A DNA stretch of 53,784 nt from Candidatus Thorarchaeota archaeon (lineage in GTDB: Archaea > Asgardarchaeota > Thorarchaeia > Thorarchaeales > Thorarchaeaceae). The stretch lies in assembly GCA_003345595.1 (NCBI GenBank), contig PRDI01000025.1, positions 1-53,784 on the forward strand. The letters run 5' to 3'. This document shows positions 12,181 to 32,200 of this stretch, one piece after another. How positions within the stretch are numbered: position 1 is the stretch's first letter; each line of letters starts with the position of its first letter. A program made the position numbers and the translations under genes. A model generated the notes under the pieces. It searched no databases and had not been told where the DNA came from. It saw only the letters and a list, made by a program, of their open reading frames with translations.

Positions 12181-12316
12181 CAGTTGGCTCTCATAGAAAC
12201 CCGATTCCCTGCTCAAGGAGTTTCAAGAAACTGTAGGAGTACTTAATAGGCGCGCCTCATCAAAGGTCACCCTCTTCCCCGATTCGCGTGGTTAGCTCTC
12301 TCTGTAGGTGTCGAGA

Positions 12317-15300
12317 TTGAAGAAGAGACGATACGTGCTTTTTGCCGTCCTAGTTATTGTGATGCTCATTCAGCTCGATGTCAAACTGGCTGTAGACCAT
12401 CCAGATACCCCGAATCTCAGTTCCGACGGATTGGTCGGGATTGAAGACCCCCTTAGACTCCTGAGGAAGGTAATAGCCGACACCGCAGCTCCAAGAACCC
12501 CGACGGACCTCAAGGAGCTTGTGCTCGACCTACTTGAGGCCACGCCGCTTGCCAACAGGACTGACTACGATGGGGACGGACTTTACGATCCTGTGGAGGC
12601 CGTTATCGGGACTGATCCTGAGAGCAATGACACAGACGCAGATGACCTGTCAGATTACGATGAAGTCATGAACGGGACTGATCCGATTCTGCCAGACTCC
12701 AACTATGACGGGCTCTTTGATGATGATGAAGTAAGTGTTGAACTAGATCTTGACGATGATGGCATTCCGAATGCGTGGGATTTTGACAACGATGGCGACG
12801 GGGTAAATGACCGTTCGGACCTTTCCCCCTATGCGAAATCAGTTGTTAGTACGAGCTTCAACATTTCGATACAAAGTACTGGTTCACCCACCTACATAAC
12901 CTTCCAAGTTGTCCCGGAGAATCCTGAGCATCTTCGATTACTTTACCAGACTTGGGATTGGCTCAATTACGATAGTGAAGGGCAGATGCAGGATATTGAT
13001 GGGTCGAAGAACGACTTGGAGTTAGTTCCGTATCTGCATCTCAAGACTCGAGCAATACCTGTTCAGTCCGACTTGGATGCTTTTGGTGTCTTGGCCGTAG
13101 GCGATGGTATCTCTATTCCTCTATCACCAGTATATGAGTTTGAGAACATAGTGGCATTCAGCGGAAGGCTTCTCTATAATGAAAGTACACCGTTGGATAT
13201 TGATCTGGAGGCAGAGCTAGTGTGGCAAGTGGTGGGATACACTGATGCCACAGCCTACATTCTGAAAGCAAATGGCAACTACGTGTCCGTTGGTCAGAAT
13301 ACGATTGCTGTTGCTAACGTTAGCGATGAGAGCTATGCTGCGGTTTTGGAATGGATTATACTCAAGGAAACCAGCGATATAACCACTGTAGCCATAAAAC
13401 TCATGGGCGGCCCCTACCTGTCAGTTGCTGAGGACAACAGGACTCTGGAGTTCAATGGAACAAGTATTGGTCAGCGAGAAACGTTTCAGCTTCTCAAACT
13501 ACAAGGTTGGTTAATGGGTTACAATGGGAACTTTACGTCTGTTCTGCCGGACGGTACTATGACCCTCACGGTGTATGAACGAGCAGTATTCAGTGTCATT
13601 GATACCGTGCATACAAGCCCGACCGCTCTTGTGAGGTATGATGAGCCTTTCATGTTGACTGGATTCACAGTCGAAGAGTTCCACGGAACTGATGTTGGGA
13701 TTCTCTACAATGTCACTAGCAAGAATCAGACAATTGCAGCCCAATGGCTCATGAACTACAGGTTCGTTAACAACGCGACGACCACACTATCAGATATGCC
13801 TAGTCTCTTGCAGGGGTACAACGTGAACGTGTCGTGCCGGGGCCAATCCGTCACTTCCAAGTATCAAGCTCTGGTTGTATTGAGTGAGAATCTGATTCCA
13901 GATGCTCTGGGGCTCCGCTCGAGTGATGAGGCGATGCCCATAATCATCGCTATTGAAGATAATACTACGATTGTAGACATGTCAGAGGTTTCAGCTGGTT
14001 CGTGGATTCTGAACGGTCCGTGTACGGTTGATCTGACAGCCAAGGCTATGCAGACGAGCAAGTCCCTGAAGATGAACTGGTACAATTCATCTACATTCAT
14101 TGGTCTTTGTCCAGCTGAGATAGTCGCCGAAGTGATCACCTGGGGCGAAGATCCGGTGACTTCCTACAACCTGATTACAGTCCTTCTGAGATGGAACACT
14201 GGAGAATACAGAATAACGAAGCAACAACTTGTTCCACTGGAGCTTGACGATTTTGACACCTCTGAACTTGATTTGGTGTCGAATATTGCCATGGCCGGTC
14301 TTTCAATACTGGAACTTGGCGGCACTTATGTGAGTCTTCTCAAGAACTGGAGGCATCTCAAATGGCTACAGGGCGGGGAAGTGCCAGCGACAATGCGGGA
14401 GATCACAGACTACTTGGCAAGATGGTCACAGGGTCTCTGGGGCAAGAGCAATCTCGTGAAGAGCATAGGGCAGGACAGCAAGATCCTAGCGTTCTGCAAG
14501 TATCAGGATTCTCTGTCGCGGGGAAGTAGAAGTGGACGGTTTGCGAAGTTCTTCAAGATGTTCGATGACGCCATGTTTGTGATTGGGGTGGTTGTCGAAG
14601 TAGGTCTGTCAATTGCGGCAGGTGTCATGATTGCAGATCAGATTGGAGGCTCGGCAGGCAGGGAGTTCGGAGTACCATATGCTTTACTTGCGCTTGTTGT
14701 CGGGCTGTGGATAATGGGCACAGAGGCTATTATTGCGACAATACCAGTCATCGGATGGCTGATAGCATTGGGAATCGGAATAGCTGATGCTTGCGGTAAT
14801 TACTCGCAAGGTATGATAGCGTATATCGTTAGCCAGCTGTACGGAAGGGCAAACTCCTTCGCCTTTGTTACGCCAGACGCCTATGTCAAAGAAGTGCCAA
14901 CCATATCTGTCCTAGACTATGACAACAATGGTGTCGACCTAGGGGATACCATTCTTGTGAACGGTACCCTGTGGAGCGAGATTGATGTGGCCATACTGTT
15001 CGCTAGCAAGATGACGGAGTTCTTTGAAACCGACCTCTATACCCTCTTTGCTAAAATGACTAATCCAGAATGGCATTGCTACGGTGACATCAACTTCAAC
15101 CTCCCGTATGTGGACATCATCGGCCCAGAAGGATCGAACACGGGCATGTCGGTCACGTCCTACACCGATCCTCTTTTTGTGTGGAGGTTGCTCAATGCAT
15201 ACCTCTATGGTGGGCTGTCGATCCTGAATTCCGAGGATGGAACATACGTGAAGAGCATCCGTGAAGGTGGCACATGGTGGCCTTGGCGTCACTATTGGGT

Positions 15301-18300
15301 CGCACGAGAATACCCCTTCTCTGCTTGGATCACGCCAGGAAGCGCGCAACCCAACTTCCCGATAGTGACACGGATGACATCAACGTACAAAGTGTCAAAC
15401 TTCTGGTGGCACTGCCCTGTCTGGCTATTTGGTGCGGAATGCCTTCATCGCGACTGGTTCATCAACTATACACGGTACAACATAGTCACAGACTACTATG
15501 ATGTTTTGCCCGGTTCTCTTGCTGATTTCCTTGTATGGAAGTGGATTTCTGCCAATGATTACGACGGAGATGGTCTCAACAAAACTGAGGAGCTGTATTA
15601 TGGAACATTCTGGACTGAGTGCGATAGCGACGCCGACGGCCTCGACGATGGATATGAGATCGAGCACGGTTACGACCCACGAGCGTACGACACTGACTCG
15701 GATGGAGTCACAGACTGGTTCGAGAACACGTATGAAACGAATGTTACAGACACTGATTCGGATGGTGACGGGCTCACTGATTACCAAGAGATCTCCGGCT
15801 GGGTCATCAGCTTCGACTACCTAGACAACATATCATTGCCGTTCCAGATGCGTGTGACGTCAGACCCGAGCATTAACGATACTGATGATGATGGGATTGG
15901 AGACCTCACGGAATACAAGTGCAACACGAACCCACGGTCAAAGGACACCGATGGTGACCGCATCGAGGATGATGTCACAACTGAGAAAACGATTTCGATA
16001 GGGAACTATGAAACAAGCCGCGACGTCACACAATATGGTTGGGTATGGGATTCAGAGGCCAATCACCCCCAATCAGCAACAACGATGGCTCGTGTGGTTG
16101 ACGACATTGCCGTTGATGCCTATGGATGCCTATACACAACCAGTTTCTATGACGACTATTATGACGAGATTAGGAAGTTCTATCCGAATCTCACTGAGGT
16201 AGTTCTGCCAGATACTTCCTACTTCACTCAAGGGGACAGTTGGGCGATTGATGGTTGTGTGTTTGGATTAGAGGTAGACTCAGCAAACGATTGGCTCTAT
16301 GCATGGACGTACAATTATAACTACACACTCAGTCTCTTGAGATTCAGTCTGGATGGATCAGTCCTGAACCCAGGATCATACACCCCATTGTCTTATGCGG
16401 TTACACCGGCACACACTGAACCCGACCTGATTGCAAGTGTTCCATCAGTTATGTCGGATTTGGATCTAAGCTCGGCCGGAAATATCTTCACTACGTGGTA
16501 TGTTGGTATACCTACAGAGATGGGACAACCATGGGATTATGGCCCGGTAGAAGTGTACAACCGTTCAGGAGCTTTACTTGATACGTGGGGAACTTGGTTA
16601 CCATGGCCCCCAGCCGAACTTCTTCCAGAGAAGTTCGACAATCCAGTCACCATAGCAGTTGATTCTGAGAACGGGTATGTCTATGTGGGTGAGAGAGCAG
16701 AACCTTGGATGTTCAACTATTCACGAGTCGCAAAGTTCCGAATGGCAGACGGAGCTTACATCTCAGCGCTTCCAATGGATTTCCTATCAATAGAAGACAT
16801 TGATGTAGACCCAGAAGGCTTTCTCTATGTCCTTGGCAATACGACTGAAGGCCCTTGTCTTAGGAAGTTCAATAGGGATGGGTTTGAGGACGAGGGCTTC
16901 GTCTTGTATGGGAATGCGACCGCTAACTTCACAAAACCCATAGCTGTTACTGTAGACCCGAACCATAACATCTTCATCCTAGATACCGTCGAGCGCAATT
17001 CTGTTCCTCTAAATCCGTCATCAGTATCACGAGTCTGGAAGTTCTCGCAGGAGGTCTACTTTGTTTCTGATCTACCGCCAGATACGAATCCGGACTGGGA
17101 CAATGATGGTCTGAACAATACTCAGGAGTTCGACGGTTGGGACATCACTGTCAACTTCACCTCTGGCGAGTTTGCATTCCGAGTGACAAGCAGTCCTCTG
17201 ATGAACGACTCTGACCAAGATGGCTTGGGAGATTTCGTGGAGTTCGCTCTTGGCTCTAATCCAAACTCACCTGACACAGACCTAGATGGAGTATCTGACC
17301 ACAAGGAGTGGTGGTTATTCACCTATCCCGGTGTTGCCTATGTTCCACCTACGCCGTCTTGTTCGGCTTCTCCATCAACTCTCCATACGAACTACATGAA
17401 TTGGCAGGCTGCGGGAGCCTCGTTGACTGATTGGGACACTGATGGAGATCTTCTACGAGACGGCATCGAGCTCGCCTTCGGCAGTTCGCCCGTCAGCCCG
17501 GACTCAGACGGAGACGGATTGTCTGACATTATGGAGTTCTTGTATAACTCAGACCCGAACAGTGCTGACACGGACAATGATGGTGCCGATGATGATCAAG
17601 AGTTGTATGGCAACTCTAGCCTCCTCTCAGCTGATTCTGACAACGACTTCATGTTTGATGGGGCTGAGTATGATCAAGGCACAAATGCAACTGACATCGA
17701 CTACGATGCTGACGATATTCCAGATGGGTATGAGCTGCTTTATGGGACCGATCCAGTAGACGATGATTCTGATGGCGATAACATCTCTGACAGCATGGAG
17801 CTCACTCTCGGGCTAGATCCGAGAAGCAACGACACTGATGGGGATGGCATTGATGATGGAACAGAGCTCTCGATAGGCAGCAATCCTTGGAATGAAGACT
17901 CAGACTACGACGGAATTCCAGACAGTGAGGACACTGATACCTATGCCAAATGGGAGGGACCAGTCATCCTGGTCCTAGACCCAGATGCGCTTAATGAGAC
18001 CCTTGATTTCGCGACGACGCTTGCAGATTATGTCGAAGTCATAGTAGTTTCTGTTGACGAGCTTCTTGAGAACTATAGTGACGCTTCATACGTCGTCCTC
18101 ATAGGGCGTCCTGACCCTAACGGTTCCTCAGTTGAGGGGCTGGTATATGACCTTCTGGTTGACACTGGAGACGTCTTGACTGACATGTTGGATGAAGAGT
18201 CACGCAACATGGCCATAAGATACGGAGTGTGGACTGATACTCAGACAGTGACCATGTTATCTTCAGCAATTCCAGAAGATGTCTTCTTGGTCCTCCAGAT

Positions 18301-19054
18301 ACTGCGTGGGAAGAATGTCACAGTTTTGGCTGATTCTGTACATATTGAGTATCAGAGACTTGATGCACTACACAATGGAACAATCGCCTATGCGATTGTT
18401 GTGAATGAGATTGACTCTCTGCGTGCGATTGACTCGGTTCTGTCCTTGTATCTGAGTGGAGGCGCACGTCTCAGTATGCAGATCAGCAGGTACAACACAA
18501 CAACAACTCCTCACGTACTGACCTATGCAACTGGACTGCGTGGGAGTGAAGTTTCACTCGGTGTCTACTTGGATGTGTCAGTAACACTGTACGAAAACAC
18601 AACCGACGCGTTGGAGGCCACATTGGTTCAAATCTACTACAGGGAATCAGACTTGGACCAGAACGGGGACGGTGTCATTGGGAAAATCGGCGACATCAAT
18701 GAAACCTCTCTCTGCCTCTACTGGTACGATGAAACATCTAGCTCGTGGATCAGACTCACGAGCGATTTGGAATGGGTAATAGGTTCTGGTCTGAATACCA
18801 CTGATGTTGAGATATATGGAGAGAGCTATGCAGGCTACGTATGGGCTAACGTCACGCGACTCTCGTTGTTCGGGCTGGCAGGCGAGCTCATCTCTGTCGA
18901 GGTGCCCCTGGCATACTATGCAGTTGCCACAATCGCAGCCTCTGCTGCAGTCGTGGGTGTCCTGTTCGTATATAGAAGAAAGAAGCAGTTCCTGGGAGGA
19001 ACTGAAACCGAAACTTCGCTTGACCCTCAGCCGAAGAAAGAGGATGGAGGTTAG
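12317..19054 (+). CDS. Giant membrane-anchored surface protein, paralogue 1: Ca-binding DxDxDG repeats, fascin-like trefoil, central hydrophobic helical module, NHL propeller, C-terminal TM
   Basis: 2248-aa ORF. N-terminal KKRR plus hydrophobic signal; three blocks of DTDGDGLxDxxE repeats; GPYLSV...IGQRETFQL; P.TIAVD..GYVYV NHL blades; TM helix then RRKK. Start TTG 12317 lies 5 nt after AGGTGT (alternative GTG 12308). Confidence 0.85.
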   Translation: MKKRRYVLFAVLVIVMLIQLDVKLAVDHPDTPNLSSDGLVGIEDPLRLLRKVIADTAAPRTPTDLKELVLDLLEATPLANRTDYDGDGLYDPVEAVIGTDPESNDTDADDLSDYDEVMNGTDPILPDSNYDGLFDDDEVSVELDLDDDGIPNAWDFDNDGDGVNDRSDLSPYAKSVVSTSFNISIQSTGSPTYITFQVVPENPEHLRLLYQTWDWLNYDSEGQMQDIDGSKNDLELVPYLHLKTRAIPVQSDLDAFGVLAVGDGISIPLSPVYEFENIVAFSGRLLYNESTPLDIDLEAELVWQVVGYTDATAYILKANGNYVSVGQNTIAVANVSDESYAAVLEWIILKETSDITTVAIKLMGGPYLSVAEDNRTLEFNGTSIGQRETFQLLKLQGWLMGYNGNFTSVLPDGTMTLTVYERAVFSVIDTVHTSPTALVRYDEPFMLTGFTVEEFHGTDVGILYNVTSKNQTIAAQWLMNYRFVNNATTTLSDMPSLLQGYNVNVSCRGQSVTSKYQALVVLSENLIPDALGLRSSDEAMPIIIAIEDNTTIVDMSEVSAGSWILNGPCTVDLTAKAMQTSKSLKMNWYNSSTFIGLCPAEIVAEVITWGEDPVTSYNLITVLLRWNTGEYRITKQQLVPLELDDFDTSELDLVSNIAMAGLSILELGGTYVSLLKNWRHLKWLQGGEVPATMREITDYLARWSQGLWGKSNLVKSIGQDSKILAFCKYQDSLSRGSRSGRFAKFFKMFDDAMFVIGVVVEVGLSIAAGVMIADQIGGSAGREFGVPYALLALVVGLWIMGTEAIIATIPVIGWLIALGIGIADACGNYSQGMIAYIVSQLYGRANSFAFVTPDAYVKEVPTISVLDYDNNGVDLGDTILVNGTLWSEIDVAILFASKMTEFFETDLYTLFAKMTNPEWHCYGDINFNLPYVDIIGPEGSNTGMSVTSYTDPLFVWRLLNAYLYGGLSILNSEDGTYVKSIREGGTWWPWRHYWVAREYPFSAWITPGSAQPNFPIVTRMTSTYKVSNFWWHCPVWLFGAECLHRDWFINYTRYNIVTDYYDVLPGSLADFLVWKWISANDYDGDGLNKTEELYYGTFWTECDSDADGLDDGYEIEHGYDPRAYDTDSDGVTDWFENTYETNVTDTDSDGDGLTDYQEISGWVISFDYLDNISLPFQMRVTSDPSINDTDDDGIGDLTEYKCNTNPRSKDTDGDRIEDDVTTEKTISIGNYETSRDVTQYGWVWDSEANHPQSATTMARVVDDIAVDAYGCLYTTSFYDDYYDEIRKFYPNLTEVVLPDTSYFTQGDSWAIDGCVFGLEVDSANDWLYAWTYNYNYTLSLLRFSLDGSVLNPGSYTPLSYAVTPAHTEPDLIASVPSVMSDLDLSSAGNIFTTWYVGIPTEMGQPWDYGPVEVYNRSGALLDTWGTWLPWPPAELLPEKFDNPVTIAVDSENGYVYVGERAEPWMFNYSRVAKFRMADGAYISALPMDFLSIEDIDVDPEGFLYVLGNTTEGPCLRKFNRDGFEDEGFVLYGNATANFTKPIAVTVDPNHNIFILDTVERNSVPLNPSSVSRVWKFSQEVYFVSDLPPDTNPDWDNDGLNNTQEFDGWDITVNFTSGEFAFRVTSSPLMNDSDQDGLGDFVEFALGSNPNSPDTDLDGVSDHKEWWLFTYPGVAYVPPTPSCSASPSTLHTNYMNWQAAGASLTDWDTDGDLLRDGIELAFGSSPVSPDSDGDGLSDIMEFLYNSDPNSADTDNDGADDDQELYGNSSLLSADSDNDFMFDGAEYDQGTNATDIDYDADDIPDGYELLYGTDPVDDDSDGDNISDSMELTLGLDPRSNDTDGDGIDDGTELSIGSNPWNEDSDYDGIPDSEDTDTYAKWEGPVILVLDPDALNETLDFATTLADYVEVIVVSVDELLENYSDASYVVLIGRPDPNGSSVEGLVYDLLVDTGDVLTDMLDEESRNMAIRYGVWTDTQTVTMLSSAIPEDVFLVLQILRGKNVTVLADSVHIEYQRLDALHNGTIAYAIVVNEIDSLRAIDSVLSLYLSGGARLSMQISRYNTTTTPHVLTYATGLRGSEVSLGVYLDVSVTLYENTTDALEATLVQIYYRESDLDQNGDGVIGKIGDINETSLCLYWYDETSSSWIRLTSDLEWVIGSGLNTTDVEIYGESYAGYVWANVTRLSLFGLAGELISVEVPLAYYAVATIAASAAVVGVLFVYRRKKQFLGGTETETSLDPQPKKEDGG

Positions 19055-19437
19055 TGCCCTAAGAGCATGATAGGACACACTTCAAGACAGAGAGGACTCA
19101 CGCCTTTCTCCTTTCTCCAGACGTAGACTGATATCAACAACAGATAGCCGACAATTGCGGAGTAGATTGCCCATTCTAGAGTTGGGAGCATCAAGAGGTC
19201 GGGACGGTCAGCGAGACTGCCAATGTCACCATAGTCACCGAACAGAAACGCCTCAAAGACTACGACATTGAGAACCCCCTCGCACAGGAAGAACTCCTCA
19301 ATCCATATCGTCCACTGTGTTTCGTTTCCCAAGACTTTGATGAGATCCCACTTGGCCGCTTCTCCTTTCTCGCCCGCACAGCTCGGGAGCTCAATGGCTT
19401 TGGTGCCCAGAAATCTGTGACAAGACACACGTGGCAT
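19051..19437 (-). pseudogene. In-frame chimera at the duplication junction: wHTH N-terminus fused to the DUF998 C-terminus
   Basis: MPRVSCHR...KWDLIKVLGNETQWTIWIEEFFLCEGVL is joined to NVVVFEAFLFGDYGDIGSLADRPD...VWRKEKG. 19097-19274 is a close copy of 37672-37849. Confidence 0.75.
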
Positions 19438-19574
19438 CAGCTGGCGTGACAGAGCCCCGAATTCCTGCAAGGGGAGTTTCAAGAAGGCTGTAGGAGCAGT
19501 TAATAGGCGCCTTTCGCCGTGGGATAATCCCTTCTTCCTGTTCGCGTGGTTAGCTTTCTGTGCAGGTGTTGAGA

Positions 19575-22500
19575 TTGAAGAAGCGATACATGCTCTTTGC
19601 CATATTAGTGACCGTGATGCTTATTCAGCTCGATGTCAAACAAGCTGTGGACCATCCAGAAACGTCGAATCTCAGTTCGGGCGGATTGGTCGGAACTGGA
19701 GACCCGCTTCGAGTCCTGCGGAAGGTAATGGCGGACACCCCGGCTCCAAGGACCCCAACGGATGTCAAGCAGCTAGTCCTTGACCTACTTGAAGCTACGC
19801 CACTCGCCAACAGGACTGACCGCGACGGGGACGGGCTTTACGATCCTGTGGAAACTATCATCGGAACTGACCTTGAGAGCAACGACACGGACGCCGATAG
19901 TCTGTCTGATTACCATGAAGTCATGAATGGGACTGACCCAATCCTGCCAGACTCCAACTATGATGGACTCTTTGACTATGATGAAGTCAATATCGAATTG
20001 GATCTGGATGATGACGGTATTCCAAATGCATGGGATTTTGACAACGATGGCGATGGGGTGAATGACCGTGCGGATCTCTCCCCCTATGCGGAATCAGTTG
20101 TCAGTACCAGTTTCAACTTCTCAATACAGACTACTGGCTCGCCTACCTACATAACCTTCCAAGTTCTCCCTCAGAATCCTGAGCATCTTCGGCTGCTGTA
20201 TCAGACCTGGGATTGGCCAGATTATGATACCGAAGGGCAGATGCAGGATCTTGACGGATCGAAAGATGACCTAGAGTTGGTTCCATATCTGCATCTCAAG
20301 ACTGAAGCAGTGCCTGTTCAGTCGGACTTGGATGCGTTTGGTGTTCTAGAAACAGGCGATGGCGTTTCTATTCCCTTGTCACCGGTATATGAGTTTGAGA
20401 ACATAGTGGCATTCAACGGAAGACTTCTCTATGCCGAAACCACACCCTTGGACATCGACCTAGAGGCAGAGTTGGTATGGCAAGTATTAGGATACAATGA
20501 TGTCACAGCTACCATTCTGAAAGCAGATGGCAACTATGTATCCGTCGGACGGGACATGATCGCTGTTGCTAACGCTAGCGATGAGGGCGATGCCGTAGTA
20601 CTGGAATGGATAACAATCAGGGAAACTAGTGAAAGGACCACTGCAGCCATAAGAATCATGGACGGCCCCTATCTGTCTGTAGCAGAGGACAAGAAGACTC
20701 TGGAATTCACTGGAACAAGCATTGGTGAGCGAGAAACGTTCCAGCTTCTGAAACTGCAGGGATGGCTAATGGGCTACAACGAGAACTGCACAGCTGTTCT
20801 ACCAGACGGTACCATGGTCCTACGGTATGACGATCGAGCAGTGTTTGAGGTCATGCACAGTCTTCATACAAGCTTAACTCCTCTTGTCAAGTATACTGAG
20901 CCTTTCATGTTTACTGGATTCACAGTCGAAGAGTTCCACGGAGCCGATGTGGGGATTCTCTACAATGTCACTGACAAGAATCAGACGATTGCAGCTCAAT
21001 GGCTTATGAACTACAGATTCGTGAACAATGCCACGACCACACTATCAGACATGCCCGGTCTTCTGCAAGAGAACAACGTGGCCGTGTCGTGCCAAAGTCA
21101 ATCAGTCAGTTCCAAGTATGAAGCTCTAGTAGTATTGAGTGAAGAGCTGATTCCAAGTGCTCTATATCTCGATTCAGGCGATGAAGCGGTACCCATAATC
21201 ATCGCTATCGAAGATAACGCCACGATCGTAGACATGTCCGAGGCCATACCTGGCTCATACATCCTAGGCGGTCCGTGTACTGTTGATATGGCAACCAAAG
21301 CTATGCAGACGAGTAAGTCCCTGAAGATGAACTGGTACAATTCAACTACATTCATCGGTCTCAGCGCGACTGAGATAATCGCCGAAGTGATAACTTGGGG
21401 CGAAGACCCAGTGACTTCCTACAATCTCGTGACCATCCTTCTGAGATGGAACACTGGAGAGTACAAGATAACGAAACAAGACCTTGTTCCGTTGGAGCTT
21501 GACGATTTCGACCCCTTGGAGCTTGAACTAGCGTGGAATATTGCCATCACTGGTGTTTCAGCACTCGAACTCGGTGGCAAGCTTGTAAGTCTTCTCAAGA
21601 ACTGGAGGCATCTCAAATGGCTACAGGGCGGCGAAGTGCCAGCAACAATGGCAGAGATCACAGATTACTTGGCAAGATGGTCACAGGGCGCATGGGGCAA
21701 AAGCAACCTGGTGAAGAGCATAGGAAAGAACAGCAAGATCCTGGCGTTCTGCAAGTATCAAGATTCTCTGTCGCTCGGATGTAGAAGTGGTAGATTCGCG
21801 AAGTTCTTCAAGATGTTCAACGACGCCCTGTTTGTGATAGGAATCGTTGTCGAAATAGGTCTCTCAATCGCAGCGGGAGTAATGATTGCAGATCAGATTG
21901 GAGGCTCCGCAGGCAAGGAGTTTGGAACAGCATATGCTGTTCTTGCGCTCATTGTCGGTCTCTGGATGATGGGTACACTAGCTGTTATTGCGGCAATACC
22001 AGTCATTGGATGGCTGCTGGCATTGGGAATCGGCATAGCTGATGCCTGCGGCGATTACTCACAAGGCATGATCACGTATGTCGTTGGCGAACTGTATGGA
22101 GAGGCACATGCTTTCGGCTTTGTGACACCAGATGCCTATGTCAGAGAAATACCAACCATATCCGTCCTAGACTCTGACAGCAATGGTGTCGATCTGGGGG
22201 ATACTATTCTCGTCAACGGCACGCTATGGAGTGAGCTTGATGTGGCGATAAAGTACGTCAGCAAGATGACCAAGTATTTTGGAACCGATCTCAATACCCT
22301 CTTGGATAGAATGACTAATCCCGCAACCGGGAACCTCAGAGACCTCAACTACATTCTTCCATATGTGGATATCATCGCGCCAGCAGGATCGGACACGGCG
22401 GCCTCTAATTCACGGAACTGGCTCTCTGCATACCTCTCGGGCACACTGCCTGCCCTACAATCCGAAAGTGGAACATACAAGGACACGATTTACGAAGAAG

Positions 22501-25500
22501 GATTATACACGCCCTGGTATCATTATTGGTTTGCGAGAGAGTATTCCTATTCTGCTTGGATTAGACCAGGAATTGCACAACCTGATTTCCCAGTAGTAAC
22601 ACGGATGACGTCGGACTACAAAGTTTCGAACTTCTGGTGGCATTCCCCTGTTTGGAAGTTCGGCGCCGAATGCCTACACCGTGAATGGTCCAAGAATTAT
22701 ACGCAGTACAACATAATCACTGGGTACTATGATGTCTTCCCCGGTTCTCTTGCCGATTTCCTCGAATGGAAGTCGATATCCCCTAATGACTACGACGGGG
22801 ATGGTTTCAACGAAACTGAGGAAACAGCCTTCGGAACATTCTGGACTGAATATGATAGTGACGCTGACGGTCTTGATGACGGGTATGAGATCGAACAGGG
22901 CTATAACCCACTATCGTACGATACTGATTTCGATGGAGTCACAGACTGGTTTGAGCACGCATATGGGACGAATGTCACAAACAGCGACTCAGATGGGGAC
23001 GGACTTGATGACTACCAAGAGATCTCTGGCTGGGTCATCAGCTTCAGCTATTTGGGTAACATATCATTGCCGTTCCAGATGCCTGTGGCGTCGAATCCGA
23101 ACAACAACGATACTGATGAGGATGGAATTGGAGACCTCACAGAATACCAGAGCAACACAAACCCACGGTCAAATGACACCAATGCTGATGGTGAACCTGA
23201 CCTCTCATATGCGCAGTTCGTTTCAGAGGCAGCCTATGAGACATATACCGATTGGACAATGGAGGGTGAGTACTCCACAATAGCGGACATCTGTGTAGAT
23301 GAGTATGGACACGTCTATGCCAGCGGAACCCTAGATCCTATCAGCACTAACAGTACGATAAGGAAGTACGACTCATCCTTAGTGCAAGTCACTCTTCCAT
23401 CAGATTCCGTCTTCATCAATATGACCTGTTTTCCCTCCTACTACGGAGTAGGTTTTCTGAGAGTAGATGAGGCTAATGACTGGCTCTACGCCGAGGTCTA
23501 TACCCAACTTTGGAGATTCGATTTGAACGGCACATCAACGAATCCGGGGCCTTGGACGCCACTCAGTGATAACACTATTATGGATGTTGACTTTGATGTC
23601 AGCGGGAATATCTACGCGGCGCGATTCGATCCGGGCTTGGAAACTGCAGGTGTTAGGAAATACAGTTCAGATGGGACGGTCTTGGCAACTTGGGGTACTA
23701 GAGGGTCAGCAATTGACCAGTATGATGAGTTACAGGCAATAGCTGTTGATGACAAGTACGGCTTCATCTATCTCTGTGACCAGCAGTGGAATTACGGCAA
23801 GACGGATAGGGTCGTCAAACTGCGACTATCCGACGGTGCATACGTCGGAACTCTGTCACAGGACTATGATTCAGTCCTAGATGTCGACGTTGATGTGGAT
23901 GGTTGTGTCTATGTTCTTGGTGAGACCCCTGATGGCACGTCTGTTCAGAAGTTCTATCCAAATGGCGATGAGGATGAGGCCTTTCGATTCTTCGGGAATG
24001 AGACGCGTGACTTCATGGCATCTAGTGGGTACTACAGACATCTGGCTGTTGCTCCTGACAAGAGCATCTATGTCTTGGATTGGATAGTCCTAGGTATGAC
24101 CACAACCTCAAGGATCTGGAAGTTCTCACAGACTGTAACGCTAGCTTCCGAATCACTACCCGATACGAACCCGGACTGGGACAATGATGGCCTGAACAAT
24201 ACTCAGGAGGTCGATGGTTGGAACATCACTGTCAATTTCGCTCATGGGGAAGAGACCTTCCGAGTGGCAAGCAGTCCTGTGATGAATGACTCTGACCAAG
24301 ATGGCTTGGGAGACCTCATGGAGTTCACTCTTGGCTCCGATCCAGGATCACCTGATACTGATCTGGATGGGGTGTCTGACCACAAGGAGTGGTGGCTATT
24401 CACCTATCCCGGCGTTGTCTATGTTCCACCTACGCCGTCTTTTGCCATTCCTTCATCGACTCTACCAACGAACTACATGAACTGGCGTGCCGAAGGGCCC
24501 TCGTTGACAAACTGGGACACTGATGGAGACCTTCTACGAGACGGCATCGAGCTTGCCTTCGGTAGCTCGCCCGTCAACCCAGACCTAGATGGCGATGGAT
24601 TGTCTGACGTCATTGAGTTCTTGTACAACTCAAATCCGAATAGTAATGACACGGATAGTGATGGTGCAGATGATGGTCAAGAGTTGGCTGGCAACTCAAG
24701 CCTGCTGTCAGCTGACTCAGACAACGACTTCATATTCGATGGGGCCGAGTACTACCTTGGGACAAATCCAACAGGCACTGATTTTGACGCTGATGGTATT
24801 CCAGATGGGTACGAGCTGCTCTATGGGACCGACCCACTAATCGGCGACTGTGACGATGATGGCATCGCTGATGGCATGGAACTCACGCTCTGGTTAGACC
24901 CATGGAGCAACGATACCGATGGGGATGGCGTTGACGATGGAACAGAACTCTCGGTAGGCAGCAGTCCTTGGAACGAAGACTCAGACTACGATGGAGTCCC
25001 GGACGGTGAAGACAGTGATACGCTCGCTGAATGGGAGGGGCCAATCATCTTGGTCATGGAACCAGATGCATCTAATGACACACTCGAGTTCGCGACAATG
25101 CTTGGTAACTACGTCGAGGTCGTAGTTGTTTCTGTTGACGAGCTCGTCGGCAACTACGGCGACAGTCCATACATCGTACTTGTAGGGCGTCCCGACCCTG
25201 ATAGCTCCTCAGTTGCAGGACTCATGTACGACCTTCTGGCTGACACTGGAGATACCCTGACAGACATGATGGCCGAAGGTTCACACGGCGTGGCCCTGCG
25301 ATATGGAGTCTGGACTGACACTCAGACGGTAGCGATGCTATCTTCAGCGGTCCCAGAAGATGCTTTCATAGTCCTTCAGATAATGCGTTGGAAGAATGTC
25401 ACAGTCCTACCTGAGTTCGTGCGGATTGAGTATCAGAGGGTAGAAGCAGAATACAATGGAACGATTGCCTATGCTGTCGTTGTGAATGAAATTGACTCTC

Positions 25501-26123
25501 TGCGTGCGATTGATTCGTTTGTTACCTTCTATCTTAGCGGAGCCGCTCGCCTCAGTATGCAGATTGCCAAGTACAATACAACGACAACGCCTCACGTACT
25601 CACCTATGCGACAGGACTGCATGGAAGTGATGTGTCACTTGGGGTCTATTTGGAAGTGTCACTGGCACTATACAAGAACAGAACCGACGTGTTTGAATCT
25701 GCACTGCTACAGGTCTACTACAAGGAATCAGATCTGGACCAGAATGGAGATGGCGTCATTGGAGGAATCGGAGACATCGATGAGACTTCTATCTGTCTTT
25801 ACTGGTATGACGACTCATCTGATTCGTGGATAAGACTGACCAATGATCTGGAGTGGGTTCTGGATGCCAGCCTGAATACTACTGATGCTGAGATCTATGG
25901 AGAGAACTATGCAGGCTACGTATGGGCCAATGTCACGCGACTCTCGTTGTTCGGGCTGGCAGGCGAACTCATTTCTGTCGAGGTGCCCCTGGCATACTAT
26001 GCAGTTGCCATAATCGCAGCGTCTGCTGCAGTCGTGGGTGTCCTGTTCGTACATAGAAGGAAGATACAGAATCCAAAGAGAGCTGAGACCGAGGTTTCTC
26101 TTGGCTCTCCACCTGGAGGATGA
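19575..26123 (+). CDS. Giant membrane-anchored surface protein, paralogue 2 (same architecture as paralogue 1)
   Basis: 2187-aa ORF collinear with paralogue 1, with a divergent NHL propeller (WGTRGSAIDQYDELQAIAVD). TTG 19575 lies 5 nt after AGGTGT. Confidence 0.85.
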   Translation: MKKRYMLFAILVTVMLIQLDVKQAVDHPETSNLSSGGLVGTGDPLRVLRKVMADTPAPRTPTDVKQLVLDLLEATPLANRTDRDGDGLYDPVETIIGTDLESNDTDADSLSDYHEVMNGTDPILPDSNYDGLFDYDEVNIELDLDDDGIPNAWDFDNDGDGVNDRADLSPYAESVVSTSFNFSIQTTGSPTYITFQVLPQNPEHLRLLYQTWDWPDYDTEGQMQDLDGSKDDLELVPYLHLKTEAVPVQSDLDAFGVLETGDGVSIPLSPVYEFENIVAFNGRLLYAETTPLDIDLEAELVWQVLGYNDVTATILKADGNYVSVGRDMIAVANASDEGDAVVLEWITIRETSERTTAAIRIMDGPYLSVAEDKKTLEFTGTSIGERETFQLLKLQGWLMGYNENCTAVLPDGTMVLRYDDRAVFEVMHSLHTSLTPLVKYTEPFMFTGFTVEEFHGADVGILYNVTDKNQTIAAQWLMNYRFVNNATTTLSDMPGLLQENNVAVSCQSQSVSSKYEALVVLSEELIPSALYLDSGDEAVPIIIAIEDNATIVDMSEAIPGSYILGGPCTVDMATKAMQTSKSLKMNWYNSTTFIGLSATEIIAEVITWGEDPVTSYNLVTILLRWNTGEYKITKQDLVPLELDDFDPLELELAWNIAITGVSALELGGKLVSLLKNWRHLKWLQGGEVPATMAEITDYLARWSQGAWGKSNLVKSIGKNSKILAFCKYQDSLSLGCRSGRFAKFFKMFNDALFVIGIVVEIGLSIAAGVMIADQIGGSAGKEFGTAYAVLALIVGLWMMGTLAVIAAIPVIGWLLALGIGIADACGDYSQGMITYVVGELYGEAHAFGFVTPDAYVREIPTISVLDSDSNGVDLGDTILVNGTLWSELDVAIKYVSKMTKYFGTDLNTLLDRMTNPATGNLRDLNYILPYVDIIAPAGSDTAASNSRNWLSAYLSGTLPALQSESGTYKDTIYEEGLYTPWYHYWFAREYSYSAWIRPGIAQPDFPVVTRMTSDYKVSNFWWHSPVWKFGAECLHREWSKNYTQYNIITGYYDVFPGSLADFLEWKSISPNDYDGDGFNETEETAFGTFWTEYDSDADGLDDGYEIEQGYNPLSYDTDFDGVTDWFEHAYGTNVTNSDSDGDGLDDYQEISGWVISFSYLGNISLPFQMPVASNPNNNDTDEDGIGDLTEYQSNTNPRSNDTNADGEPDLSYAQFVSEAAYETYTDWTMEGEYSTIADICVDEYGHVYASGTLDPISTNSTIRKYDSSLVQVTLPSDSVFINMTCFPSYYGVGFLRVDEANDWLYAEVYTQLWRFDLNGTSTNPGPWTPLSDNTIMDVDFDVSGNIYAARFDPGLETAGVRKYSSDGTVLATWGTRGSAIDQYDELQAIAVDDKYGFIYLCDQQWNYGKTDRVVKLRLSDGAYVGTLSQDYDSVLDVDVDVDGCVYVLGETPDGTSVQKFYPNGDEDEAFRFFGNETRDFMASSGYYRHLAVAPDKSIYVLDWIVLGMTTTSRIWKFSQTVTLASESLPDTNPDWDNDGLNNTQEVDGWNITVNFAHGEETFRVASSPVMNDSDQDGLGDLMEFTLGSDPGSPDTDLDGVSDHKEWWLFTYPGVVYVPPTPSFAIPSSTLPTNYMNWRAEGPSLTNWDTDGDLLRDGIELAFGSSPVNPDLDGDGLSDVIEFLYNSNPNSNDTDSDGADDGQELAGNSSLLSADSDNDFIFDGAEYYLGTNPTGTDFDADGIPDGYELLYGTDPLIGDCDDDGIADGMELTLWLDPWSNDTDGDGVDDGTELSVGSSPWNEDSDYDGVPDGEDSDTLAEWEGPIILVMEPDASNDTLEFATMLGNYVEVVVVSVDELVGNYGDSPYIVLVGRPDPDSSSVAGLMYDLLADTGDTLTDMMAEGSHGVALRYGVWTDTQTVAMLSSAVPEDAFIVLQIMRWKNVTVLPEFVRIEYQRVEAEYNGTIAYAVVVNEIDSLRAIDSFVTFYLSGAARLSMQIAKYNTTTTPHVLTYATGLHGSDVSLGVYLEVSLALYKNRTDVFESALLQVYYKESDLDQNGDGVIGGIGDIDETSICLYWYDDSSDSWIRLTNDLEWVLDASLNTTDAEIYGENYAGYVWANVTRLSLFGLAGELISVEVPLAYYAVAIIAASAAVVGVLFVHRRKIQNPKRAETEVSLGSPPGG

Positions 26124-26287: not shown

Positions 26288-29200
26288 CTAAGGCCGTCTT
26301 CCACGTGTCGCGATGACGATGATTATCACTATCACGCATGCAGCTCCCGACACAATCACGACTATACCTATGGCTGGCGAGATAATCACGGTTGCCTGGA
26401 TGACTGTGATGGTGATGGTAGCGCTCTGTACGTTTCCAAACGCATCACTGACCGTGATCTCAAGGCCATAGACTCCTGGCTCAAGGTCAGTGCTGTTGGT
26501 GATGACCGCTACTCCATGAGCGACATCTCCCATCGGGTCAATCCGGAAGTTTGCGGTATCGTTGATGGCCCACCAAGAGATCGCCGAGGCATCTGTAACG
26601 GCAACGGCATACTCGAACGGCTGACTCTGAAGGACAGACCTGTCCAGAGGTGTTTCTAGCCATTCTGGGGGTGTAGTGTCAGTCACGGTGACATGGATGA
26701 CTGTGATGGTAATGGTAGCGCTCTGTACGTTTCCAAACGCATCACTGACTGTGATCTCAAGGCCATAGACTCCTGGCTCAAGGTCAGTGCTGTTGATGAT
26801 GACCGCCACTCCATGAGCAACATCTCCCATCGGGTCAATCCGGAAGTGTGCAGTATCGTTGATGGCCCACCAAGAGATCGCCGAGGCATCCGCAACGGCG
26901 ATAGGATACTCGAGTGGCTGACCTTGGAGGACAGACCGGTCCACAGGTAGCTCTAGCCATTCCGGAGGTGTAGTGTCAGTCACGGTGAGTGTGAATGTGG
27001 CCGTAATGGTATTGCCATATATGTCGCTCACTTGAACTGCAATCGCGTATGCTCCTACTTCCAGAGTGTGCAGGTTCGAGATCAAGCCGGAAGCACTTAC
27101 GGCGAAGAGTCCATCGGGCAGGACAGAGTATGATACTTCACCGCTCAAGTCCCAGGCCTCGACCTGATAGTCTAGGTCTTCTCCGGCTTCCAAGACTTGG
27201 TCTTCGGGTTCGATAGTCCAGATCGGAGGCGTTGAATCTACAACATTCACTGTGATAATTGCACCGCAGAAGTATCCTTGCGGGTCATATGCCCTTATCT
27301 CAATCCCATATCTGCCAACTGTGAGTGACAATGCATTTGTGAGTATACCCATTGAGTCAATGTTGAAACTCGTGGTATCATTCACCCAATAGTACGCTAT
27401 GCCGGAGTAATCTGTTGCATTGAGGTCATAGACGAGAAGCTCGCCAAATTCGATTATCTGGTCCGTCGGCACCTCAATCCACTCAGGAGGCATCGTATCC
27501 TCTACTGTGATGGTGAACTCTGCTGAGATGGTGTATTCCCACAGGTTACTTACTACGATGGAGATGTGATAGTCCCCTGTCTCCAATGGAGTAGCATTTC
27601 GTAGAACACCCTGATCATCAATCCAGAACATGCCATCACTAATCAGGGTATAGGTAAGATTGCCGTATCCAAACACTTGCAGATCATAAGATAGTGCCTC
27701 ACCACCTCCTATGGTCATATTACCGGGTGTTTCAATCCACGATAGATACCACGGATAATACATCAGTGGGTGAGGATCCTCATTCTCTGCAAATCCGAAG
27801 ATATGATATGGAATATCACCATAACCATCATGGTCATCATCAGGGCCTGTGTAATCAGACCAATAGTTGTAGTCAACAAGATTGTTCTCGTAGTCATCAG
27901 CCATGTTGTACTGAGTGTTATCCTCGAAGACATTCCACATGACAATGTTGTTATCGGAGTACTGCAGGAAGTATAGTCCCGCGTCATTATTACTGATAAC
28001 ATTGTACTCGATAGTATTCCATTCCGACTGCGAGAGGACAATGCCTACATCCAAGCAGTCTTCGATGGTATTCCATGAGATATGATTGGACGTAGAAGTA
28101 TCAATGATAATCCCTTGGACATCCTGAGCAAGATAGTTATCCGATATCTCGTTCATTGTCCCCCAGAGCACGAGTATACCTGTGCCTTGGTTACCAACTA
28201 TTGTGTTTTCGTGGACAATTGTGTCTGCAGCTTCCACCAGAACGAGTCCATACCCCTGGTTGTAGAGAATACTGTTAAAGCACACATAATCTCCATAGGA
28301 GTAATCGAGTTCCATTCCTATCGTGTTCCCTATGCAAGTGTTGTTCAAGAGAGTGCTGTTGCCCGAGAAGGTTTCATAGATGCCGAAGTAATTGCCTTCG
28401 CAGTAGTTGTCGGTGACATTTATCAAAGAGCAAGTTCCGTTGAGGGAGATTCCGAAGATTTCGTTCATGCTGCACTGATTATCTATGACACTGCTAAGGT
28501 AGGTGTCGGCGAGCATTATTCCTACCGAATTCTCGAAACAATCGTTACTTTGGAAGTAACAGTAGCTGGTCGAAATGGCACAGATACCGAAATCATTCCT
28601 AAAGCAGAGATTATCGACAACAGTAGTCAGCCGACAGATCTCCATCAAGATGCCGAATGAGCCTCCAGTGCAGGTGTTGTCCTCGATGACTCCATTCTCA
28701 ACATTATAGAGATACAGTGCGGAATAACCACCCGCTGCATACATGGCACAGTGTTGGACAATGAAGAATGCTTGCGTATTTCGTATCTCGATACACGGTA
28801 CATAGAGTCCGGACGCATTCAGCACTAAGCCTGAAACGATGAATGGGTCTTCGGGAGTCCCCAAACCCGGCCAGTGTTGAGAAACGAAGTCACCATCTCC
28901 ATCAATGAGAATTGGGCCAGAAATGACTTCAACTATGACTCTGAAGCTACCTGTAAGTACATTCCCAAGGGTATCACTGACCCATACTTGGATAGGATAG
29001 ATTCCTCCACCAAGCTCGACAACATTTGTCACAACGCCCTCGGAATCGATAGCAAAGTGGACTGTATCGTCAATCCACCAATCGCCAACCCCAGCTGGAT
29101 CTATTGCGTCTAAGTCATAGTAAAGAGAATCCCCTACGACAAGGTACTGGTCTTCTGGAAGAGATACCCACGCAGGTGGGACGTTATCAAACGGTGGAAT

Positions 29201-32200
29201 CATGTTCGTATCAGTCAGATAACCAAATCCACGGACCATCATATCTGTTGAATTGAATTGAACCAAGAGTCCATTTGACTGCAGACATAGAGCAGATATA
29301 TCACCGGATTCGCTTGACAAGACCCAGACTGCTTCTCCATTCCACTCTGCCGGACCGACCACGGAGAGTATCTGCTGCCACATGAAGAACGGCGCAAGAT
29401 CACCTATCTGTGTATAGGACTGTATCGGATTAGGTGAGGGGAGTCCGGTGAAGAACATGAAGTGGAAGGTTTCCCAATAGAAATCTGATTGGGGGATGTA
29501 TCCATTCAAGATATTGATGGTGAGCGTATAGTTTTCTAGGGCAATCGTACCTCCTTCATTGTAGAGATGGTATATCAATGACGCTTGAACTTCGAATTCC
29601 GCGACCATTTCACCAAATGTCAAGTTGAGATCATTTGTGGCGTATGGGTCTTCTATTCTGAGGTTGAGATAATCGCCTGACTTCGGACGAGCAATGGGTA
29701 TGACATCTGCGGATAGGACTGTGACATTTGCACTCGAAGACGAGGCATCACTCCATGTTGCTGCAACTGAAATGGTGTTTGTCCCATTGGCGAATACGGG
29801 GACAAAGAGGCTGTTTGAGCCATTATACGGTATTATGAATAGGGATTCGTCGTTTACGAAGGCTTCAATCTGAAGTAGGGAGCCCAGGTTCGAACCCGTG
29901 AATTCCACATATACTAGTCCGCCTTCTACAACTTCTTCCATTGCTGGTTGGACGATCACAATCTCGTTCTCCACGAAACCAGAAATCAAGTTCGTGTCCA
30001 TGACCTCAGCATAGCAGTAGGGTGTTGGCAATCCAAAGTACATTTCGACAAGTAGTCCATTAGACTCCAATACACTGCACGAGAAGTCCCCCAACAAACC
30101 ATAGCCATTCCATACTGTTCGTCCTCTCCATTCACCCAGATCAGAAATCACGTATAGGTCGTTCCAAGTGAAGAACGTCGCTAAATCGCCAGGACTTGCA
30201 TGACTAATGACCTCAGGAGAAAGAAGTCCTGTGAATGGGAAGAAGTGGTAGTTGTCCCATCCAATATCAGACCAAGCAATGTACCCATTCAACACGTTCA
30301 CGATCAGATTGTAGTAAGCTATGTTTTCATAGCCAGAATCATCCCAGACGTGCAATAACAGCCCCACTTCAACCTCGAATTCTGAAACATAGTTGCCAAA
30401 GGTGAAATTGTACTCCTGATAGTATCCGCCGCTGTAGGTGAAAAGATAGTTCAGGTAATCACTTGGCTCCAACTCCGCGAGAGGTGTGACATTTGTTGAC
30501 TCAATGTTCACTACAGCAATAGCACTGAGATTACCATTCCACCATGCGATTAGTGCTATTTCATTCGTTCCTTCCCTGAACACTGGGACAATGAACTGGT
30601 TTAGGCCAATATTACTCGCATTGGCGATGTATTCTCCGTTGACAATCACATCTATGCCTGTAAGACTCTCAGGGTTCGCTGCTTCGTAAGCTATGAGGAC
30701 TTGTCCACCCTCAATCACCTCGCCTTCCATAGGGCTTGTTATCACGAGTAGGTTTTGGACTGTGACCATCCTTGATGCGAAGTTATTATCAAGGTTGGTT
30801 TCATTCTCGACCGGATCCACCATTGCGTCGAAATAGTATACCCCTTCGCTGGGTTGATCCCAGTAGTAGCTTAGGGTGTATTGTGACAAAGTCGGCAAGT
30901 ATGGGATTATTGCATTCGCGACAAGTCCGCCATCAAGGTATATACTCACATTGACATTGTACTCATCAGAAAGACCGAAGTTCGATACTTCAGCATCTAC
31001 GTAAAGTGAAGTCCCAGGACTTACATATGACGGTACTTTCAGCATTATGGCAAGTTCATGTTCAGGTAGCACGTATGTGAACATAAGACCAAAGTCAATC
31101 ACTCCAGAAAGGTCTCCTCCGGGATAGACTGGTCCGTAGATACCATCGCCGTAGTTCAGGCCAACCACAGGAACGCCATATGGGTCTACATCGAACATCT
31201 CCAAGTAGTTGAACTGGATTAGGCCAGATTTGTAAAGCACAACCTCGAATGTTCCCATGGTCATACCTGAGAGGTGGCGATAGTTATCGTACTGAATCAC
31301 GACCCAATCCTCTGTTGCCCACACGAAGACATTGCTTTCCGCCAGTAAATCTGCAAGCAGCAATGCTAGCGAATACCTGTAGGCAGAGTCAGACGTGGGC
31401 CACGAAGGACTGTAGGGCTGGTAAGGATTAGTGTTGTAAAAGGACAGCCAGCCGTTGCTGCTGATGTAGACGACGTCAAACATCTGGTCATAGTAGCTGA
31501 AAGTGAATGGAAGTCCAAGACCGATACTTACATCGTCACCTGACAATCCTATATTGAATCCATTGGCTTTAGCATCTAACCACACTGGTTCATATTCACT
31601 CATGTAGTAATCGTGGAACTCGGCCACAACCAATACGCTGACTGCAAGATTGTTCGCAGTGTCTTCTTCATCAGGCACTGGTTCGACATATGCCCGAACA
31701 TCATGGTTGCCTTCGATATCTGACATCCACCAGTCTCTGATTGTCACTGAGTTTCTTGATTCAAGCAGAGGAACGTAAGTGCTCATTACTTCAACTTCAT
31801 CGATGTAGAGATGTAACGTCACATTTGTTTCAGAGTTCAATCCCCGATTAATCGCAGTTGCAGTCACTAGGGTCCATTCACCAGGACTTACGCTTGATTC
31901 CAGTTCAAGAATAGCGGCAAGGTCGTGTTCGGGGACTGCGGGGAGATAGAGCAGTATGTTTTCCAGCACCCTACTATATCCAGCACCGAAACCCCACTCA
32001 AGAGTCTGCGTCGATATCATAATGCTACCTAAGCCAAACGGTTGTTCGACTAGGACAGGATTGCCATAGTCTGTAGCGAGTATAACGCTCGCACCTGAGG
32101 CTAAGGGGTCAAGATAGCCATGAACTGACGAATACCAATTGTCCAGTTCTTCATCAGTAATAATATTCGGAATCAACATCGTCGGATGATATGGATCAAT

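Follow-up and report, generated by a model that had tools for sequence, protein, structure and literature searches.

The locus considered here lies in contig PRDI01000025.1 of a Candidatus Thorarchaeota archaeon (assembly GCA_003345595.1), the whole 53,784-nucleotide stretch analyzed being referred to below as the window. It consists of two giant genes arranged in tandem on the forward strand. Gene 1 (12308–19054) encodes a protein of 2248 amino acids and is an intact open reading frame (ORF) according to the ORF list and its translation; the database copy starts at 12317, and the identical database protein, P0004, has 2245 residues. Gene 2 (19560–26123), also intact, encodes a paralogue of 2187 amino acids that is 70% identical to the first over its full length. 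In each protein, a Sec-type signal peptide stands at the N-terminus, and the C-terminus is formed by a transmembrane (TM) helix followed by a basic tail. In agreement with the initial annotation, which was made from the DNA sequence alone, they are very acidic, with 359 and 350 Asp+Glu versus 118 and 113 Lys+Arg residues, and rich in N-x-S/T sequons, with 47 in the first and 36 in the second. They are giant archaeal adhesin-like surface proteins with an unannotated membrane module in mid-chain, and belong to a large family that is conserved across several Asgard classes and Bathyarchaeia.

The module, delimited by hydrophobicity, AlphaFold2 (AF2) models, and column conservation, spans residues 651–846 of the gene 1 protein (14258–14845, forward strand, as are all features of the pair) and residues 652–847 of the gene 2 protein (21513–22100). 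It begins with a long amphipathic helix, residues 651–687 (14258–14368), a putative "TM0", which overlaps a basic, sequon-free amphipathic stretch, residues 679–754 (14342–14569), recognized from its charge counts and sequon avoidance. Three hydrophobic helices follow: H1 (14570–14644), with the conserved G760, E/D764, G766, and IADQIGG; H2 (14666–14737); and H3 with its amphipathic continuation (14738–14845), which carries the conserved IPxxGW and D827. All three are defined by the AF2 models and by conservation, H1 and H2 by hydrophobicity as well. This is the order that the initial annotation had described, a basic stretch and then three hydrophobic helices, and the positions hold as well: LKNWRHLKWL begins at residue 678 (nt ~14340) and IGIAD ends at residue 827 (nt ~14790), with the gene 2 counterparts at ~21600–22050. 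The module had also been placed among the best-conserved parts of the paralogues. Its identity is indeed high, 82% overall and 91% in the basic stretch, but it does not stand out from the N-terminal region, which has 86%; the NHL propeller has 37%.

Residues 679–754 contain 14 Lys+Arg and 7 Asp+Glu, and the 100-residue bin to which they belong is the sole net-positive one inside either protein. Family-wide, the basic stretch has 566 Lys+Arg versus 181 Asp+Glu, and the H1–H2 loop is neutral, with 28 versus 36. The Kyte–Doolittle maxima of the three hydrophobic helices over 19 residues are 2.1–2.4. In 54 family members, H1–H3 have a mean hydrophobicity of 0.71–0.75 and a hydrophobic moment of 0.10–0.21, which makes them TM-grade on all faces, while the helix at 651–678, with values of 0.37 and 0.30, respectively, is amphipathic. 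Insertion energies were estimated with an approximate Hessa scale. For the helix at 651–678 the energy is +3.6 kcal/mol in gene 1 with a family median of +7 kcal/mol, and only 2% of the members are at or below 0 kcal/mol. The family medians for H1, H2, and H3 are +2.0, +0.25, and +1.7 kcal/mol, respectively, compared to −1.8 kcal/mol for the C-terminal anchors of the family.

In the AF2 model of residues 440–1090 (predicted local distance difference test, pLDDT, of 79), a confident alpha/beta domain is followed by several short helices, the long helices 748–779, 781–810, and 815–830 plus 832–845, and a beta domain. The module-only model (pLDDT 72) has three short helices and four long antiparallel ones, 651–687, 743–779, 781–810, and 815–845, with lengths of 37, 37, 30, and 31 residues, respectively. 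The first of these, a single helix here, is split into two short helices in the larger model. It carries a heptad-like hydrophobic stripe, and polar residues are conserved within the hydrophobic helices.

The family was collected by an exhaustive HMMER search with residues 560–1090 at E ≤ 1e-3. This gave 83 clusters at 50% identity, nearly all of ~2,000 residues. A full-length alignment of 52 sequences is colinear along the whole chain, with consensus throughout, in the order signal peptide, Ca repeats, trefoil, alpha/beta domain with a WNxGE motif, helical module, beta domain, TSP3 repeats, propeller, and TSP3 repeats. Thor-, Sif-, Hel-, and Promethearchaeota, together with Bathyarchaeota, are the sources of the named members, all annotated as "hypothetical"; a literature search found no description of the family. 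The module is present in every full-length member, down to 24% identity, and is therefore not a chance feature. Its hydrophobic block has the same form in each of them, a stretch of ~25–35 residues and then one of ~45–60 residues, that is, a single helix and a double-length one. The conserved columns (54 members) are WNxGE upstream, G760, E/D764 (70%), G766, IAxxxGG, IPxxGW, and D827 (90%). A sample of 300 genomes from the phylum has the module only in the window's own family, in 10 of 76 genomes, with up to five copies that are often in tandem. A search for the module on its own, at 121–385 residues, gave nothing, and the range of 386–2000 residues yielded a single further protein. A C-terminal TM helix is present in 31 of 48 full-length members and absent from the other 17. 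In seven loci, the window and six related ones, there is no conserved neighbor or immunity-like gene.

The glycosylation sequons are distributed very unevenly along the chain. Over ~82,000 residues of ectodomain in the family, 1290 sequons are observed versus 705 expected from shuffles, a 1.8-fold excess that indicates positive selection for dense N-glycosylation. The 50-residue windows starting at residues 645, 695, and 745 are the sole depleted ones along the chain, with 0.14–0.24 of the expectation. Residues 651–751 hold 2 sequons versus 21 expected, a depletion of about ten-fold, and none of 300 shuffles is as low. In the same region, the control patterns (the reverse motif, Q/D/K/E-x-S/T, N-x-A/G, N-x-K/R, N-S/T, and N-x-x-S/T) occur at 0.65–1.46 of expectation. 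Amphipathic periodicity was considered as a possible cause and was ruled out, because Q/K/E-x-S/T and N-x-A/G/K/R are near expectation. In 35 sequences less than 35% identical in the depleted region, there is 1 sequon versus 13.8 expected, with none of 1000 shuffles as low, and shuffling within local blocks gives the same depletion. The 102 Asn residues of this set within residues 651–753, at more than 50 positions, have Ser/Thr 18 times at +1, 17 times at +3, and once at +2, with 14.8 expected at each. The cytoplasmic enzymes of the window are neutral in this respect (14 sequons observed versus 13.5 expected). Just past the last hydrophobic helix the pattern changes. A sequon lies 1–3 residues beyond it in 12 of 54 members, including N830-Y-S in gene 1 (14795–14803, N830/831), and the 50-residue window starting at residue 795, which holds this sequon, is 3.3-fold enriched, unlike the adjacent upstream desert. 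Such selective avoidance implies that the basic stretch meets the external oligosaccharyltransferase, and we conclude that it is probably exported and intolerant of glycans. More generally, sequon avoidance offers a cheap probe, needing only sequences, for the glycan-free parts of archaeal surface proteins.

Taken with the hydrophobicity and the conservation, these data support the module as a conserved membrane-interacting unit between two extracellular arms. To this extent the initial annotation, which had proposed a membrane-penetration apparatus, is upheld. Its tie to toxins is not. Neither the sequence searches nor the fold searches connect the module with a toxin pore or translocation domain. 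Pfam searches of seven modules at E values up to 10 returned only noise (B277, RE_AccI, MtrG, QueT, DUF6234, and DUF735) and no PF01024. In NCBIfam there is a single match on the module, between H2–H3 of P0013 and the T6SS effector Bfe1, the other matches being to repeats. At 19 bits it is below threshold, and it was judged compositional and set aside as a toxin lead; the matched part of Bfe1 is a predicted TM region (PMC13035841). When the family profile was compared with all PDB sequences, the only chains matched were NHL, fascin, and EF-hand-like ones, and neither the module nor the domain on either side of it had a match. Foldseek searches with the 651-residue model (residues 440–1090) and the module-only model gave no PDB match at E ≤ 1e-3, and VIA gave no match at Z ≥ 8 with either. 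The best VIA scores, Z of 6.8 and 6.3, are to three-TM-helix runs of G protein-coupled receptors (GPCRs) and similar membrane proteins and do not reach the noise level stated for helical bundles. The best fold neighbors, all below noise, are such runs of integral membrane proteins (GPCRs, DgkA, and the ATP-synthase c-ring). For the solved delivery domains of large clostridial toxins, diphtheria toxin, and Tc toxins, nothing in the fold searches exceeds noise, with TcaA-TcaB at E 8.6. A colicin-family lead from the protein atlas, with a score of 0.89, is below the lead threshold and has low recognition, and was considered unusable as evidence.

Outside the module, the domains that the initial annotation had read from the sequence, namely a trefoil, Ca-binding repeats, a variable NHL propeller, and a C-terminal TM helix, are borne out by Pfam matches in the proteins or their homologues, by the family profile, and by hydrophobicity. 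In gene 1, the signal peptide (12308–12394) has a KKRR sequence followed by a hydrophobic core with a Kyte–Doolittle value of 2.44 at residues 10–28, and AxA-like cleavage motifs are found in family members. TSP3-like DxDxDG repeats (12560–12832), read from the sequence and kept in the family consensus, precede a fascin/FRG1-like beta-trefoil (13205–13597). The latter has no Pfam match in P0001 alone, but homologues match Fascin (3e-12) and FRG1 (2e-16) at the aligned position, and the family profile matches fascin structures with an E value of 3e-4. The alpha/beta domain (residues 454–640, 13667–14227) is modeled with a pLDDT of ~90 and appears in none of the fold-search lists; W629, N630, G632, and E633 of its terminal WNxGE motif are conserved. 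This near-invariant motif, WNxGE..IT, ends the domain ~20 residues upstream of the module.

On the other side of the module lies a beta domain with very long strands (residues 849–1067, 14852–15508), 20–23 residues in length in the AF2 model, for which only sub-threshold fold matches were obtained, with Z ≤ 6.5 (Ig-like/cupredoxin and hemolysin-type). Its Foldseek top 50 consists mostly of pore formers of the hemolysin type along with class II fusion proteins, all below significance (E ≥ 5e-3, Z ≤ 5.6). The best of these, for residues 856–1067, are NetB, NetF, and leukocidins, with E ~5e-3, a TM-score of 0.1–0.24, and a root-mean-square deviation of ~20 Å. In VIA, the hemolysin-type proteins reach Z of 4.9–5.6 over 133–141 aligned residues, which is no better than the Z of 6.1 of Ig-like domains, and the hemolysin-type lead for the domain did not hold up. 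Next come a first stalk of TSP3-type Ca repeats (15548–15997), with a partial NCBIfam CglD match at residues 1105–1225; the variable NHL/SBBP beta-propeller (15998–17167), with Pfam SBBP and NHL matches, SBBP at 22.7 bits versus a cutoff of 20.5, and family-profile matches to NHL structures with E values of 3e-36 to 2e-26; and a second TSP3 stalk (17168–18007), with Pfam TSP3_bac at residues 1842–1860 and NCBIfam MtsD. The repeats had been likened to those of binary toxins. They are instead of the TSP3 type, as in CglD and MtsD, and not of the RTX or binary-toxin type.

Membrane-proximal C-terminal domains (18008–18892), conserved in the family consensus, lead to the C-terminal TM helix (18902–18976) and its basic RRKK tail, seen in the sequence and in the Kyte–Doolittle profile. 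In gene 2, the variable propeller was placed by paralogue comparison, with approximate limits of 23229–24236, and the C-terminal TM helix by the hydrophobicity profile, at 25977–26060. The C-termini of some other members differ from this arrangement. In two Helarchaeota-type members (P0015 and P0027) the C-terminal TM helix is followed by a cytoplasmic tail of ~290 residues that ends in a helix-hairpin-helix domain (HHH_5), a nucleic-acid-binding type that is unexpected on a surface protein. The Bathyarchaeota-type members P0011, P0013, P0026, P0038, and P0052 have no C-terminal TM helix and end instead in a conserved domain characterized by the motifs GNGRVYxITFxAxDGRGGE and VPHD...DDGQxYDAT.

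The pair is flanked by unrelated metabolic genes and by a gene for a surface protein of 3670 residues on the opposite strand (26288–37300). In the latter, a C25 peptidase domain and its propeptide are combined with a NosD-type beta-helix, Ig-like domains, and a C-terminal TM helix, and CARDB is matched three times. In the related locus L009, NosD-type giants likewise lie beside a family member, which suggests that giant surface genes tend to cluster. Between the two paralogues, on the reverse strand, there is an ORF of 143 residues (19051–19482) with no Pfam match.

As to the topology, we tentatively favor a reading in which the proteins serve as Ca-dependent recognition adhesins and the module resides in the membrane of the producing cell, both flanks being external. 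Both genes would then encode Sec-exported, N-glycosylated, Ca-binding proteins for recognition or adhesion, from an undescribed archaeal family. In the Thor-type proteins the chain would be held in the membrane twice, by the module and by the C-terminal TM helix. The C-arm would form an arch, rising from the beta domain through a TSP3 stalk to the variable NHL propeller at the apex and returning through the second stalk and the proximal domains, while the N-arm, with its Ca repeats, trefoil, and alpha/beta domain, would project freely. From the sequon pattern, the basic stretch would pass through the outer face of the membrane or remain on it, and the helices would go in either as hairpins from the exterior or following export, and not as the usual four-span bundle formed co-translationally.

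We infer insertion in the producer's membrane from several observations. Hydrophobic segments carried by the translocon normally partition into the membrane of the producing cell, and since the proteins have Sec-type signal peptides, this would be the normal fate of H1–H3. H1–H3 are hydrophobic on all faces, and against their ~95 residues of uniformly greasy helix there are only ~90 amphipathic ones, which appears to be too little shielding for a soluble monomer. In the 17 of 48 members that lack a C-terminal TM helix, the module is the sole candidate anchor. The presence of the same hydrophobic block in every full-length member, the sub-noise fold neighbors among integral membrane proteins, and the lack of toxin homology and of an immunity-like neighbor point in the same direction. 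The adhesin role is suggested by the repeats, which match the Myxococcus adhesion and cohesion proteins CglD and MtsD, and an arch with a ligand-binding domain at its apex would agree with the position of the variable propeller between the two Ca-repeat stalks.

Several points weigh against this reading. Three TM-grade helices between two extracellular arms are an odd number, and the only candidate for a fourth is amphipathic, with the family median of +7 kcal/mol given above. The Lys/Arg-rich stretch should be cytoplasmic by the positive-inside rule, yet the sequon avoidance places it outside, so that each simple co-translational topology in the producer's membrane breaks one rule. The hydrophobicity of H1–H3 is marginal relative to the C-terminal anchors on the same approximate scale. 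Finally, the family occurs patchily, is multicopy within genomes, and includes tandem paralogues that have a hypervariable domain, all of which conflict systems typically show as well. As predicted from the sequences, then, no simple co-translational topology meets parity, the positive-inside rule, the sequon avoidance, and the weak first helix all at once. The conflict would be resolved if the helices enter the membrane from outside, with the basic helices lying on that membrane or crossing it later.

In an alternative topology, a classical co-translational four-span bundle, helix 651–687 and H1–H3 would all span the membrane and the basic stretch would be a cytoplasmic loop, possibly signaling to or contacting cytoplasmic partners, with the conserved intramembrane acids binding an ion. 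The even number of spans leaves both arms outside, the charges of the loop and of the H1–H2 connection satisfy the positive-inside rule, and the module-only model does have four long antiparallel helices. A cytoplasmic loop should, however, be neutral toward sequons, and here they are depleted about ten-fold with the controls near 1; the first span is also amphipathic, is TM-grade in hardly any member, and appears in the larger model as two short helices instead of one. The topology had been suggested by the positive-inside rule alone and was downgraded on the sequon test to an improbable one. Constitutive TM spans in the producer's membrane had been named in the initial annotation as the counter-case to its own proposal, and it is thus this four-span form of the counter-case that the sequon avoidance and the weak first span contradict, while insertion in the producer's membrane as such is what we tentatively prefer. 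An arrangement of several chains, in which the amphipathic helices and the conserved acids would line a channel or a hydrophobic core, giving a constitutive channel or the base of a stalk, appears more improbable still. Thrombospondins, which bear TSP3 repeats, are oligomers, the heptad-like stripe of helix 651–687 and the conserved polar residues inside the hydrophobic helices are compatible with association, and association would solve the shielding problem, but no fold match to channels rises above noise.

The module could alternatively be exported and kept shielded, the hydrophobic helices entering the membrane of a neighbor on contact. The membrane potential would pull the basic amphipathic helices across, as in colicins, to give an anchor, a pore, or a bridge between cells, while the C-terminal TM helix keeps hold on the producer. 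This proposal fits all of the sequence rules at once, because the basic stretch would be exported and glycan-free and would finally lie on the positive-inside face, and it gives, by the colicin analogy, the most natural account of that stretch. An amphipathic fourth helix is present, H1–H3 are only marginally hydrophobic and rich in Gly, Ala, and Ser with conserved acids at 764 and 827, and the family is patchy, multicopy, and tandemly duplicated with a hypervariable propeller. The atlas colicin clusters and the P0013/Bfe1 match are weak leads in the same direction, both sub-threshold. On the other hand, there is no significant likeness in sequence or fold to any pore or translocation domain, no conserved immunity or partner gene, and no known trigger; too few amphipathic helices are present for three long greasy ones to be concealed within a monomer, and members without a C-terminal TM helix would be free and untethered. 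We consider insertion into a neighbor rather unlikely, though the strongest of the alternatives, and a little less likely still its specific form, a glycan-free, potential-responsive device that enters the neighbor's membrane after contact through the trefoil or the propeller.

The sequence rules of the module conflict with one another: its greasy helices are odd in number, its flank is basic, and glycosylation sites are strictly avoided. With the module in the producer's membrane, as we tentatively hold, it would represent a new mode of membrane anchoring for a giant archaeal adhesin. To our knowledge, no contact-dependent tethered membrane-insertion mechanism has been described in archaea. 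Insertion into a neighbor, if true, would thus be the first such device, and Asgard and Bathyarchaeia cells might use it to anchor to, permeabilize, or bridge partners, which would bear on models of syntrophy and eukaryogenesis.

It is instructive to compare the module with known systems. In colicin-type domains, the diphtheria toxin T domain, and the Bcl-2 family, basic amphipathic helices precede a hydrophobic hairpin and insertion follows export; the passage of the amphipathic helices of colicin Ia across the membrane is driven by the membrane potential. The present module shares with colicins (PF01024) the basic amphipathic helices ahead of the hydrophobic ones. It differs in having three long hydrophobic helices and few amphipathic ones, in place of one hairpin within eight amphipathic helices, and in lying inside a tethered glycoprotein of 2,200 residues with no PF01024 match, fold match, or immunity gene. 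The colicin fold is a globular bundle of ten helices with one buried hydrophobic hairpin; the AF2 model of the module has three short helices and four long ones, of which three are hydrophobic throughout, and no colicin appears in the fold lists, where all Z values are below noise. RTX toxins also combine a hydrophobic helical region with Ca-binding repeats in an acidic exported protein, but their repeats are GGxGxD nonapeptides and not TSP3, their secretion signal is C-terminal and of the type I system rather than N-terminal and Sec-type, and no acyltransferase or ABC/MFP neighbors are seen at the present locus. The best Foldseek geometry, which is not significant, is that of DgkA, an amphipathic surface helix with three TM helices (TM-score of 0.40–0.44 on the target, ~90 columns). 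With E values of 4–8, no sequence similarity, and DgkA being a small cytoplasm-facing enzyme, this likeness is one of a common helix arrangement only.

Giant proteins in which TM regions lie within the chain are known from Omnitrophota, namely the "Archaeovorins" and the dockerin-type giants (bioRxiv 10.1101/2023.11.21.568195). Like the present proteins, they are huge, mostly extracellular, and TSP3-bearing, with TM-grade segments within the chain and an ambiguous topology. They belong to another phylum, exceed 30,000 residues, and have SecA-like and HEAT domains, the likeness being drawn from their description. As judged by sequence matches, the closest described relatives are the bacterial TSP3-repeat adhesins CglD (NF033765) and MtsD (NF047639) of Myxococcus, which share the repeats only. 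The matches are partial, with 83 and 52 bits versus cutoffs of 400 and 800 bits, respectively, and none covers the mid-chain module or the same domain order. In common with the proteins described here, these envelope adhesins are giant acidic surface proteins that carry arrays of Ca-binding DxDxDGxxDxxE repeats (PF18884) and act in adhesion and cohesion.

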